Notes under the pieces: generated by a model
Told to the model about the DNA's origin: nothing
Seen by the model: only the letters and a program-made list of their open reading frames with translations
The model's database searches: none
Sequence record: PV714130
Reading direction: 5' to 3' (one strand)
DNA: 40,625 nucleotides
Source: Escherichia phage Pipis
Program-made: the position numbers and the translations under genes
In this document: positions 29,055 through 32,500 of the stretch, one piece after another
Numbering within the stretch: the first letter of the stretch is position 1
Layout: the number at the start of each line of letters is the position of its first letter

Positions 29055-29504
29055 ATGAAGAACGGGACAGCCAGTGAGAGACTGGCACGTCTTTCTATTT
29101 TGGAAGAAACTGGCTGTATCCGCTTCACTGGAGGTCTAAACAGCAGTGGGTATGGAAACCTATGGGTAGACGGAAAGACCGTAGGAGCGCATCGTGTTGC
29201 CTATGAGTTAGCGAATGGTCCAATACCGAAAGGTAGTGTACTTCGTCACACTTGCGACAACAGGTATTGCGTGAACCCTAAACATTTAGTATTAGGGACA
29301 CATCGTGACAACATGGAGGATATGACCAAGAGAGGGCGTCAAGCTAAAGGCTCACAGATTAGTACCTGCGTACTGACTGAAGATGACGTCAGGTTTATCC
29401 GTTCAAGTGCGAAGAGTGGTGTGGAACTGGCACGGATTTTAGGAATCTCACCAGTAACTATTAGTCGAGTCAAGAGGAGATTAACATGGCAGCACGTGGA
29501 ATAA
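29055..29504 (+). CDS. HNH homing-endonuclease-like protein inserted between genes 15 and 16
   Basis: GYGNLWVDGKTVGAHRVAYELANGPIPKGSVLRHTCDNRYCVNPKHLVLGTHRDNM: HNH motif, paralog of 18288..18698; C-terminal helix-turn-helix-like tail (ELARILGISPVTISRVKRR). Confidence 0.8.
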   Translation: MKNGTASERLARLSILEETGCIRFTGGLNSSGYGNLWVDGKTVGAHRVAYELANGPIPKGSVLRHTCDNRYCVNPKHLVLGTHRDNMEDMTKRGRQAKGSQISTCVLTEDDVRFIRSSAKSGVELARILGISPVTISRVKRRLTWQHVE

Positions 29505-32500
29505 GAAACAATAACATCGGGAACATTCGTGTTTCCAAAGACCAGTGGGAAGGGGCTACGGGTGATGACGGAGCGTTCGTGACTTTCGACACCCCAGACT
29601 CCGGTGTACGCGCTCTGGCGAAGAACCTGATGTCATATGGTCGACAGGGGTACGACTCAATCGAGAAGATTATCAACCGATGGGCGCCACCCAGCGAGAA
29701 TGAAACTCAGTCCTACATCGACTCGGTTGTGGCTGCTACTGGCATTCCAGCGACCCAGAGCATTGACTTGACGAACCCTGATGTCCTCGCCTCTCTGTCT
29801 GAGGCTATCGGCTACCAAGAGACTGGTTCCCGGTATGACCCTGAGGTCTACAAGCTCGGAGTCTCTCGCGCTTTAAGTGGTGCTGGGGGTATCACCCCAA
29901 AGACTCCACCAGTAAGCGCTAACGTCTTCGACGCTCTCACGGAGGGCTTGAAGGCTAAACCTAAAGTCGCTCTGGGAGAGAACCTTCCGGGCGTTACTGG
30001 TATGAACATCGAAGGTCAGGAACCTGAGGCTCCAAATGAGTCTTTCGGAGAGATGTTCTATAAGTCAACTGGCGAGACGTTGGACCAAAGAGCTGACCGC
30101 TCTACATGGTTCGGCTTCGGTGGAGCTGCTGAGGCCGAAGTGAAGAACTCTCTGGTTGGCGTGGCTGTCCGCGCTGGTCAGACCGAGGACTCGCTCGATG
30201 TCATTGGCGATGTGTTTAACCCTACCCGCTGGAACAACCACAAGTGGACCAGAGAGGAGCTAGACCAGATTCGTAACGCTGGGGTCCTGCCTCAGTATTA
30301 TGGGGTCATCACTGGAGGCTCCCCTCAGAATCTGACCGAGCTTATTAACTTGGCGCTTGAGAACCAGAAGTTAGACGCTGAGAAGGCCAAGGCTGGTACT
30401 GGCGCTCAACTGGCGGCTGGTGTGATTGGTGCTGGCGTGGACCCTCTGACCTACGTTCCTATCGCTGGACAGGTGGGTAAAGGAGGTAAACTGGTCAACA
30501 AGATGTTCACAGTGGCGGCTCAATCTGGAGCACTAGCTGGTGTGTCTGAGATGGCCCGTACCTCAGTGGCTGGTGGTGATGCTCATGTGGCTGAAGCTAT
30601 CCTTGGCGGTGCTCTCTTCGGTGGAGGAATGACAGCTATCGGGGACGCTATCGGCAAGGCCTTAGGCCGCAACACTAATGAGTTCGCTGGCCCAGCTACA
30701 CGTCTGGAAGCTCGTGAGACCGCTCGTAACATTGATGGTCAGGACCTGTCTCGTCTCCCTATTCAGGAAGGTGAGCAGACCTTTAGTCATCAAGGAGTTA
30801 AGTTCGCTGACGTTCCGAATGAGCCGGGTAGTGTACGACTGGAAGATGGTTCAATCCTGATTGGTGAGAACCCTCTGAACCCTAAGACACGTAAGGTCTT
30901 TGACGAAGTGATTGAGCCAGAACGTGCCGCTGCTGGTGTGAACCTTGGTGGACTTACCGAGATTGGCCTGAAGCTGCTTCGGTCTGAGAACCCTGAGATT
31001 CGTGGAGTAGCTGCTGACTTAGTGCGTTCACCGACTGGTATGCAGTCTGGGGCCTCAGGTAAAATCGGGACCACTGCGTCTGACGTATTCGAGAGACTGC
31101 GTGCTGTGGACCATCGGTTCTACAACGACATCGATGATGCGGTTACTGAGGCACTGAAGGACCCGTACTTCCAGACAGCATTCTGGCGAGACTCTGGAGC
31201 ATTCCGTCAGGACATCTACCAGCGCGTGTCTATGGTTATCGAAGATGGCAGCGGAAACCTGAAGGCTGAACTTACTCCGGGAGAACTTAAAGTCTATGAC
31301 CTACTGAAGAACCAGTTTGACGCCAAGCGTGAGATGATGGAGAACCCAGCTATGTTTGGTCGGCCAGACGCTCAGTCTATCTTTCCGGGTAGCCGCTTCA
31401 AGGGAACCTACGTCCCTCATGTGTATAGCAAACAGATGAAGGAGCTGTACATCAAGGAACTTGGGAGTCCAGAGTCGTTGCAGGAGGCCATCAAGAAGTC
31501 ATGGTTGACCAGCTATTCGTCTCGACCTGAAGTCAAGAAACGCATGGACGAGGCACTCTTAGAGTCTGACCCTACGTTGACTCCAGAGGGACTTGCTGCT
31601 GCGGTCGATAAGTACGCCAACGATAAGGCTTACGGTATCTCTCACACAGAGCAGTTCGAACGCTCATCCGTAATGGAAGAGAATATAAACGGTCTTGTGG
31701 GGCTGGAGAACAACAGCTTCCTTGAGGCTCGTAACCTGTTCGATAGCGATATGTCAATCGTCCTACCTAACGGTCAGCCCTTCAGTGTCAACAACCTGCG
31801 TGAGTGGGACATGGACAAGATTGTCCCGGCCTACAACCGTCGAATTAATGGCGATATTGCTATCATGGCTGGTACAGGCAAAACCACGAAGGACATGAAG
31901 GACTTGGTTGAGACCATGATGAACAAGGCTGGGGATGACGGTAAGTTGAAAGGTGAAGTATCTACCTTGCGTGACACCCTGAAGATTCTAACTGGTCGTG
32001 CTCGACGTGATGGTGCTGACGATGCAGCCTTCGCTACCGTGATGCGCACAATGACAGACCTATCGTTCTTCGCTAAGAATGCCTACATGGGTGTTCAGAA
32101 CTTAACGGAGATTGGTGGTATGCTGGCTCGTGGTAACGTTCGTGCAATGCTTCATGGAGTCCCGATGTTCCGTGACCTAGCATTCCGTAACAAGAAGGTA
32201 GGAGCTTCAGAGATTAAGGACCTGCACAATGTTATCTTCGGTAAGGAACTGGATGACTCAATCCGTCCGTCTAAACAGGATGTCATTGACCGTCTGCGAT
32301 CTTACAGTGACCTCGGTCGTGGTGCAGCTACAGCTCTGGGGACTGCCAAGTATTACACTGGCGAACTTGCAGTACGCTCTCCGTTCACTAAAGTCCTCAA
32401 CGGTACGACCAACTACCTGTTAGATGCTGGGCGTCAAGGCTTCCTGTCTGACATCGTGGAGCATAGCCTGACTGGTAGTAAGCGTAAGTTCGATGACCGC

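Follow-up and report, generated by a model that had tools for sequence, protein, structure and literature searches.

In T7, the ejection protein gp16 (PDB 7EYB, 7K5C, 6YT5) comprises a wing or transglycosylase domain (residues 1–156), followed by a tape (residues 157–228) that binds the gp15 periplasmic tunnel (PMC8954989). The N-terminal ~143–156 residues are an SLT/GH23 lytic transglycosylase (PF01464) with catalytic residue E37. In most laboratory settings T7 can do without this lytic activity, and the exchange of lytic domains between ejection proteins is described as recurrent (PMC8954989).

The Enc34-type family (CDD PHA02564, "V virion protein") includes Enc34 ORF39 of a Hafnia phage, M4Lys of Salmonella phage BSPM4 and protein V of D3112/MP22. 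Its endolysins are lysis-cassette enzymes of ~140–240 residues, anchored by a C-terminal transmembrane segment. [quoted passage not shown] M4Lys breaks down purified peptidoglycan, releases GlcNAc from muropeptides and behaves as an N-acetylglucosaminidase; a possible endopeptidase product was also reported, and one legend in that paper is internally inconsistent (PMC7143992). Peptidoglycan-degrading activity in the family is known only for Enc34 ORF39ΔC and M4LysΔTMD (PMC8943055, PMC7143992).

We analyzed the gp16 gene of Escherichia phage Pipis within a stretch of 40,625 nucleotides (PV714130, hereafter the window). The window is, from its sequence, a Kayfunavirus genome (K1F-like, T7-type, T7-family), sharing 90–96% DNA identity with Kayfunavirus genomes. 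The gene order is gp15–(HNH)–gp16–tailspike, which is of the T7 type, and gp16 is placed after gp15 as in T7. The features of the locus, together with a lysis gene encoded elsewhere in the window, are as follows.

9684..10142, T7 gp3.5-type amidase, a separate lysis enzyme
26770..29052, ORF of 760 residues upstream of gp16, gp15 (internal virion protein C) by annotation in relatives
29055..29504, HNH homing-endonuclease ORF of 450 nt, inserted between gp15 and gp16
29474..29479, + strand, Shine-Dalgarno GAGGAG, 6 nt 5' of the gp16 ATG and inside the 3' end of the HNH ORF, by direct sequence reading
29486..33382, + strand, gene 16 homologue (internal virion protein D, ejectosome component), ORF of 1298 residues
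33448..36642, endosialidase tailspike, downstream of gp16

Gene 16 shares its first 19 nt with the HNH ORF. The gp16 start is supported by the GAGGAG Shine-Dalgarno, and the same start context is found in HNH-carrying relatives. No direct repeats of at least 60 nt were found across the whole window. Since the phage encodes a separate lysis enzyme, the gp3.5-type amidase, the N-terminal domain of gp16 would be dispensable as an endolysin.

The gp16 protein begins MAARGIRNNNIGNIRVSKDQWEG..., the sequence quoted in the earlier note on this DNA. A phmmer search of the PDB with the full-length protein returned a near-identical protein, "Gp29" of PDB 9vvp (9vvp_L, 2776 bits), which has 1295 residues and is present in four chains. 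The best match to 9vvp Gp29 in the phage collection reached 99.3% identity (vB_Eco_ZCEC02 and two other Kayfunavirus), and a literature search for 9vvp Gp29 found no publication. Against T7 gp16 (7eyb_I), only residues 120–1297 were aligned by phmmer, to T7 residues 144–1314 (1312 bits), and gp16 belongs to PHROG 342, "internal virion protein with endolysin domain" (E=0). Homology to T7 therefore runs from about residue 120–133 to the C-terminus, through the gp15-binding molecular tape, the transmembrane and the C-terminal regions. BLASTP comparison of the first 260 residues to T7 gp16 1–280 places the onset of clear identity at GGITPK, near residue 133, with 44% identity over residues 120–260.

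The region upstream of this onset lacks the T7 enzyme. The N-terminus of T7 gp16, used as a positive control, matched Pfam SLT (PF01464) at 3.3e-31 and carries all three transglycosylase motifs (E37-S38, GMMQ at 52 and AYNQG at 107), whereas none of the three (ES, GxxQ, AYNxG) occurs in residues 1–155 of the Pipis protein. Searching gp16 against Pfam gave no SLT match, and no family at E≤1 except a chance match to HCNGP; NCBIfam likewise had no match for the N-terminal domain. Enc34 ORF39 itself has no Pfam match, so Pfam seems not to cover the Enc34-type family, and the negative Pfam and NCBIfam results are no proof that a domain is absent. A profile of the domain family compared to the T7 N-terminus gave an hhalign probability of 0.3%, and no GH23 structure was present among the Foldseek matches of the domain model at E≤0.001. 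The earlier note had reported an N-terminus without T7 transglycosylase signatures ahead of a gp16-like remainder, and both observations are upheld. Pfam, hhalign and Foldseek did not find what it had named as contrary evidence, a catalytic Glu within a canonical GH23 fold.

From sequence comparison and structure prediction, the N-terminal segment of gp16 is instead an Enc34-type (PHA02564) muralytic domain that replaces the SLT/GH23 domain of T7. In a phmmer search of the whole PDB, residues 3–118 matched residues 7–138 of 7q47_A (E=3.1e-10), and pairwise BLASTP to Enc34 ORF39 gave 31% identity (1e-17). PHROG endolysin and virion-lysin families were matched at 7e-46 to 2.5e-7, the best being PHROG 873, "endolysin". 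We used AF2 to model the domain (pLDDT 89.7, pTM 0.82), which was predicted to consist of five main helices and a short N-terminal helix, with pLDDT >90 over residues ~11–130. Foldseek superimposed this model on 7q47 (7q47_B) with a TM-score of 0.76 and an rmsd of 2.3 Å (E=4e-9), the sole significant PDB match; the next was at E=0.4. The predicted fold is thus all-helical and resembles a permuted lysozyme α-lobe, as in Enc34. Enc34 has two insertions, one following helix 2 and one preceding the last helix, and the gp16 domain lacks both. Because the Enc34 fold is distantly related to the GH23/GH73 α-lobe, we describe the replacement as a different domain family and not as unrelated chemistry; the permuted kinship between Enc34 and GH23 argued in PMC8943055 was below detection in our hhalign and Foldseek tests. 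The domain and its putative active-site residues map to the window as follows.

29486..29878, + strand, Enc34-type (PHA02564) muralytic domain, residues 1–131, from phmmer, BLASTP, PHROG, AF2 and Foldseek
29681..29683, + strand, Trp66 codon (tgg), equivalent to Enc34 Trp79, the substrate-positioning aromatic, by alignment with the role taken from PMC8943055
29714..29716, + strand, Tyr77 codon (tac), equivalent to Enc34 Tyr95, by alignment
29819..29821, + strand, Glu112 codon (gag), equivalent to the catalytic Enc34 Glu131, in the HENG motif (here QETG), by alignment with the catalytic role taken from PMC8943055
29882..30112, + strand, linker and molecular tape, about residues 133–209 (~T7 gp16 157–228), from BLASTP and low pLDDT, with approximate boundaries

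The coordinates given in the earlier note were about right, the folded domain being residues ~3–131 (29492..29878). Prediction confidence falls past residue 131, and residues 132–155 form a low-confidence linker that is part of the T7-homologous region. The earlier description of the N-terminus as divergent holds in that it differs from T7, but the segment is better described as a replacement by another module than as a diverged copy.

The gp16 domain shares with the family the motifs RGIRNNN(P/I)GNI, RWAPP, xxY and (H/Q)E(N/T)G, and also the catalytic Glu with its Trp/Tyr pair, two aromatics that matter for activity in structural homologues. Among 62 homologues, Trp66 and Glu112 are each conserved in at least 90% of sequences and Tyr77 is invariant. 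An alignment of 11 sequences extends the conservation of all three residues across Kayfunavirus, Minipunavirus, Uetakevirus, Casadabanvirus and Enc34, with Tyr77 again invariant and Glu112 present in 11 of 11. The N-terminal motif departs from the family consensus at one position, reading RGIRNNNIGNI in place of RGIRNNNPGNI; the family Pro, conserved in at least 90% of the 62 sequences, is Ile11 here. Seven of the eight Kayfunavirus and Minipunavirus gp16 proteins compared, Pipis included, have Ile11, while Pro is found at this position in Ro103C3lw and 9vvp. We considered a link between Ile11 and the adjacent HNH gene, through target-site immunity or co-conversion, and rejected it, since SH4 and EV136_1 lack the HNH and have Ile too; Ro103C3lw contradicts the link as well, having a 450-nt ORF at the same site and yet Pro. 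The dN/dS of the domain is 0.04–0.10, similar to the remainder of gp16, and indicates strong purifying selection.

The same gp16 arrangement was found in about 220 deposited genomes of Kayfunavirus and related phages, and in Minipunavirus. The N-terminal swap is therefore real but ordinary, being common to over 200 sequenced relatives. Comparison to T7 indicates that the wing is exchanged as a module, since T7 homology switches on abruptly at GGITPK. Comparable virion lysins have arisen by domain shuffling in other phages, where an ejection or structural protein carries a grafted muralytic module or is packaged together with one, which lets the incoming virion open the cell wall (the lysozyme domains of SP6 gp36 and K1-5 gp38, K1E/K1-5 gp35, NO16 GP11 and SPC32H_016). 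NO16 GP11, detected in NO16 virions (PMC13552765), and SPC32H_016, a 937-residue structural protein of an epsilon15-like phage, contain the same Enc34-type domain as the Pipis gp16. Its position varies, being N-terminal in gp16, internal in SPC32H_016 and stand-alone in NO16, and the carrier proteins and virus lineages differ. The domain also occurs within proteins of PHROGs that have the annotations head protein, tail-injection protein and tape-measure protein. The closest stand-alone homologues lie on metagenomic contigs of about 10–13 kb. The non-tailed Vinavirales were considered as their source, which was not borne out by the one contig examined (P0004), a tailed-phage fragment in which a baseplate gene and a holin adjoin the homologue, that is, a lysis cassette; the contig of P0001 was too short to be assigned.

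We consider it highly probable that the Pipis gp16 is a T7-type ejection protein, ordinary except that an Enc34-type muralytic domain of ~131 residues takes the place of the SLT/GH23 wing. An unusual N-terminus could in principle be an artefact of the HNH insertion or of a wrong start codon, giving a chimeric or mis-called ORF, and the HNH ORF does lie directly upstream and overlap the start of gp16. This is hardly credible, since the HNH-less Kayfunavirus SH4 and EV136_1 carry the domain right after gp15, with an MA(A/T)RG(I/V)RN start, and these relatives already refute it. The domain is also present in PDB 9vvp and in the gp16 of Minipunavirus MP2, and the Pipis ATG follows a strong Shine-Dalgarno. 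It is very unlikely that the segment is the SLT/GH23 lytic transglycosylase of T7, diverged beyond sequence recall. Such a relationship would fit the shared position in an otherwise homologous protein, the distant co-ancestry argued for Enc34, GH23 and GH73 (PMC8943055) and the several GenBank records that name a lytic (exo)transglycosylase. However, those names were apparently transferred from T7, and neither Pfam SLT, to which the T7 protein matches at 3e-31, nor hhalign or Foldseek recovered GH23. Residue 112, the predicted catalytic Glu, sits on the C-terminal core helix and not on the N-terminal one, as E37 does in T7, so that the helix order is permuted, and the abrupt onset of T7 homology at GGITPK is the signature of module replacement.

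A catalytically dead remnant is improbable, though a little less so. Here the gp15:gp16 tunnel would use the segment purely as a structural wing or to bind peptidoglycan, leaving the virion without wall-cutting activity. The near-invariant family Pro11 is replaced by Ile, T7 needs its lytic activity only conditionally so that a loss could be tolerable (PMC8954989), and our literature search found no paper reporting enzymatic activity for a gp16 with an Enc34-type N-terminus. Against this, the catalytic Glu and both key aromatics are kept in every gp16-type sequence examined, and Pro11 in sister Kayfunavirus sequences (Ro103C3lw, 9vvp) stands beside the Ile11 of others, which makes the change a tolerated polymorphism and not decay. 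The low dN/dS also argues against decay, although purifying selection alone cannot separate catalysis from binding. Loss of activity is not supported, because the active-site residues are kept under strong purifying selection, and an inactive segment is unlikely. The earlier note had proposed that the activity came from a different fold or was absent; the 7Q47 matches favor the different fold, while the retained active site and the dN/dS speak against absence.

For the replaced-wing gp16, we infer enzymatic activity, bond specificity and a role in entry by analogy with its characterized relatives. As in T7, gp16 would be packaged in the internal core and, at infection, would leave through the portal and tail, partly unfolded, to refold in the periplasm, presumably by the same ejection pathway with a wall-opening enzyme at its N-terminus. 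The T7-conserved tape and C-terminal regions downstream would assemble into the gp15:gp16 tunnel and the channel across the inner membrane, and the N-terminal domain would locally hydrolyse the glycan strands of the cell wall, letting the conduit pass. Catalysis is expected from Glu112, on the last core helix of the all-helical, circularly permuted α-lobe relative. The bond cut is probably GlcNAc-β-1,4-MurNAc, as extrapolated from one family member, M4Lys, which is only about 32% identical to the gp16 domain (judged from Chivirus matches). The T7 lytic transglycosylase cuts MurNAc-GlcNAc, whereas the Pipis domain is probably hydrolytic (a glucosaminidase). As the lytic activity is mostly dispensable in T7, its contribution to infection may be conditional here too.

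The main value of these observations lies in annotation. Many Kayfunavirus gp16 proteins bear the names "peptidoglycan lytic (exo)transglycosylase" or "transglycosylase", which seem to have been carried over from T7, and the correct family for such domains is Enc34/PHA02564, whose characterized member M4Lys behaves as an N-acetylglucosaminidase. The family is thereby extended from endolysins to packaged ejection proteins, the domain here being the N-terminal module of a 1298-residue protein. The accepted view of T7-type infection is unchanged. The locus is a clean natural case of module exchange in the T7 ejectosome, exactly at the wing/tape boundary, and the wall-opening enzyme therefore appears to be a plug-in part, useful for phage engineering. 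We propose more tentatively, at a little under even confidence, that the Kayfunavirus and Minipunavirus ejectosomes open the wall with a permuted Enc34-fold enzyme that acts as a hydrolytic N-acetylglucosaminidase and not with a lytic transglycosylase, a different chemistry from that of T7. If so, more than 200 genomes would carry a wrong "lytic transglycosylase" label, the small all-helical domain would be a naturally refoldable, portal-passing lysin for engineered phages or enzybiotics, and the wall-opening step of T7-type DNA ejection would be chemically interchangeable.

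We compared the N-terminal region of the Pipis gp16 with T7 gp16. The gene, whose ATG lies 6 nt 3' of a Shine-Dalgarno sequence (GAGGAG) read from the sequence, is located as follows.

29486..33382, + strand, gp16 ORF (3897 nt, 1298 aa), with the domain under study at its 5' end

In a phmmer search of all PDB sequences, T7 gp16 (7eyb_I, 6yt5_G) matched at 1312 bits, limited to query residues 120–1297 (T7 144–1314), and pairwise BLASTP of the N-terminal regions placed the start of clear identity at the common GGITPK motif, near residue 133. T7 gp16 carries E37-S38, GMMQ at 52 and AYNQG at 107; no motifs of these types occur in residues 1–155 of the window gp16. 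The T7 N-terminus, as positive control, matched Pfam SLT (PF01464, 3.3e-31), whereas the window gp16 gave no match to this family. With hhalign, the Enc34-type family profile of the window domain aligned to the T7 N-terminus with a probability of 0.3%. The earlier note's description of an N-terminus without T7 lytic transglycosylase signatures, on an otherwise gp16-like protein, is borne out by these comparisons.

The N-terminal segment is no orphan. The 155-residue segment is similar to the catalytic domain of the phage Enc34 'Endolysin' (PDB 7q47_A, E=3.1e-10, residues 3–118), to the Enc34 ORF39 protein (1e-17, pairwise BLASTP) and to PHROG family 873 'endolysin' (7e-46). Five further PHROG families match, in which the same ~115–135-residue module is carried inside large proteins whose annotations read head protein, tail-injection transglycosylase or tape-measure protein. 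We used AlphaFold2, with an input alignment of the window domain and 61 database homologues, to predict the structure (mean pLDDT 89.7, pTM 0.82), with high confidence at approximately residues 11–130 and low confidence beyond. The two 7Q47 chains were the sole significant Foldseek matches in the PDB (TM 0.76, RMSD of 2.3–2.4 Å, E=4e-9), the next best match being at E=0.4, and there were no GH23 enzymes among the significant matches. The Enc34 catalytic domain has been assigned to family PHA02564 and is all-helical and lysozyme α-lobe-like, with the core helices in a circularly permuted order compared with GH73 and GH23 (PMC8943055).

In Enc34, the catalytic Glu131 is placed on the last core helix, and Trp79 and Tyr95 are conserved, with equivalents that matter for activity in structural homologues (PMC8943055; numbered there as the Met1-based numbering minus one). 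Alignment gives the corresponding codons.

29819..29821, + strand, Glu112 (Enc34 Glu131)
29681..29683, + strand, Trp66 (Enc34 Trp79)
29714..29716, + strand, Tyr77 (Enc34 Tyr95)

All 62 aligned sequences have Tyr at the position of Tyr77; Trp66 and Glu112 are each at least 90% conserved. A cross-lineage alignment of seven Kayfunavirus gp16 proteins, Minipunavirus MP2 gp16, the domain inside the SPC32H 937-residue protein, MP22 protein V and Enc34 shows Glu112 and Tyr77 to be invariant, with Trp at position 66 in all sequences but one, which has Tyr. Pairwise Nei-Gojobori dN/dS values for the domain were 0.04–0.10 against six Kayfunavirus relatives, comparable to the adjoining T7-homologous part of gp16. 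Together, the conserved active-site positions and low dN/dS indicate that selection has preserved the domain, including an intact catalytic apparatus.

Codon 11 (29516..29518) encodes Ile, where the Enc34-type family motif RGIRNNNPGNI has a Pro that is at least 90% conserved. Ile11 is common to TM1, Ro45lw, GA2A, SH4, EV136_1 and Minipunavirus MP2, and Pro11 is retained in Ro103C3lw and PDB 9vvp. A tie between Ile11 and the HNH insertion was considered and rejected. Judged from these relatives, Ile11 is a polymorphism common to sister phages and not a sign of decay.

A structural wing that has lost catalysis is disfavoured by the conserved active-site residues. The earlier note had suggested that wall opening may come from a different fold or be absent; the 7Q47 match, in sequence and model, favours the former, and active-site conservation speaks against the latter. 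That the segment is a diverged SLT domain is contradicted by the Pfam control, positive in T7 and negative here, by the negative hhalign and Foldseek comparisons, by the catalytic Glu, whose position is permuted, and by the abrupt onset of T7 homology. HNH-less relatives share this N-terminus, which excludes an artefact of the adjoining HNH insertion or of a wrong start.

Two HNH endonuclease ORFs are present in the window.

29055..29504, + strand, HNH endonuclease, 149 aa (Pfam HNH_3, 3.8e-15; C-terminal HTH)
18288..18698, + strand, second HNH_3 endonuclease, 136 aa (Pfam, 2.1e-12)

The former is inserted precisely at the gp15–gp16 junction; it contains the gp16 Shine-Dalgarno sequence and overlaps the gp16 start by its final 19 nt. 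It has the look of a mobile homing endonuclease. The junction is covered end to end in only 5 of 207 matching phage records, and the insert is missing from most Kayfunavirus. Ro103C3lw has a same-size ORF of divergent sequence at this site. The second, directly 5' of a 522-residue ORF (18691..20259), is likely another homing endonuclease.

The window is a K1F-like, T7-type Kayfunavirus genome. Over its first 25 kb, identity is ~95.7% to Escherichia phage PhiNW-B1, a phage of E. coli K1, and to related phages; the gp15–gp16 junction region shares 90.7% identity with phage TM1. Three further genes are located as follows.

33448..36642, + strand, endosialidase tailspike downstream of gp16, 1064 aa (T7 tail-fibre N-terminal adaptor, endosialidase β-propeller, β-barrel and stalk domains, C-terminal S74 chaperone)
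9684..10142, + strand, T7 gp3.5-type N-acetylmuramoyl-L-alanine amidase (Pfam Amidase_2, 1.3e-16)
37336..37785, + strand, Rz-like ORF (weak match, just under the Pfam cut-off)

The tailspike architecture is that of K1F-type endosialidases, thus the phage would target the K1 polysialic acid capsule. Since a separate amidase is present, the gp16 domain is not required as lysis endolysin and would be a second, virion-borne wall enzyme; this dispensability agrees with an entry role.

The Enc34 catalytic domain is lytic to E. coli, P. aeruginosa and Hafnia whose outer membrane has been permeabilised (PMC8943055). The homologous domain of M4Lys degraded purified peptidoglycan and takes GlcNAc off muropeptides (HPLC-MS), read as N-acetylglucosaminidase activity with a possible extra endopeptidase product (PMC7143992). 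Virions of the non-tailed vibriophage NO16 contain a stand-alone homologue, GP11, for which an entry role has been proposed (PMC13552765). T7 gp16 exits the capsid partly unfolded, then refolds; residues 1–156 make up the wing with the transglycosylase, residues 157–228 form a 'molecular tape' stabilising the hexameric gp15:gp16 periplasmic tunnel, the remainder is inserted in the inner membrane and reaches into the cytoplasm, and lytic activity is needed only with highly cross-linked peptidoglycan (PMC8954989). Relative to T7, the window protein retains everything from the tape onward and has exchanged the wing alone, which suggests the same pathway. We infer activity, bond specificity and entry role for the window gp16: the Enc34-type domain would open the wall locally during a T7-like ejection pathway, probably via hydrolysis of the GlcNAc-MurNAc bond.

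The domain was found by tblastn in 751 phage records, 221 of them at least 60% identical. The latter are Kayfunavirus and close relatives, with the domain at the gp16 N-terminus, and infect Escherichia, Salmonella, Enterobacter, Citrobacter, Shigella, Cronobacter, Klebsiella and Kosakonia. The domain is likewise N-terminal in gp16 of Morganella phage MP2 (Minipunavirus), where it is 40% identical. The T7-type SLT N-terminus occurs in 1224 records, including Teseptimavirus and Klebsiella, Yersinia and Pseudomonas T7-like phages. The PDB already includes a near-identical full-length protein (9vvp, 'Gp29'). The commonest database label for gp16 homologues is 'internal virion protein with endolysin domain'; in some records the name is instead 'peptidoglycan lytic exotransglycosylase', 'peptidoglycan transglycosylase' or 'transglycosylase', including these with an Enc34-type domain.

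OM908436 (TM1; 2060..4374 within L003, a stretch of this record), OQ703102, PP328844, OL362276

The transglycosylase label is unsupported by the domain actually present and was probably transferred from T7, and it is probably wrong as to chemistry. Separately, the label 'protein inside capsid D' on a small stand-alone homologue (Vibrio phage fNo16, MH730557) comes purely from the shared domain.

The domain also lies within a putative virion protein of the epsilon15-like podovirus Salmonella phage SPC32H (KC911856).

3900..6713 within L011 (a stretch of KC911856), 937-residue 'putative structural protein', Enc34-type domain at approximately residues 367–479 (middle), 51% identical

A literature search, covering sources other than the K1F genome paper, turned up no publication that connects gp16-type proteins with the Enc34 family. 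Podovirus ejection proteins are already recognised to exchange lytic modules (PMC8954989; PMC5380687), thus the gp16 swap is a known kind of mosaicism, here between two well-characterised families. The presence of the Enc34-type domain in SPC32H and, by PHROG profiles, within head, tail-injection and tape-measure annotated proteins indicates that the module was recruited into virion proteins several times.
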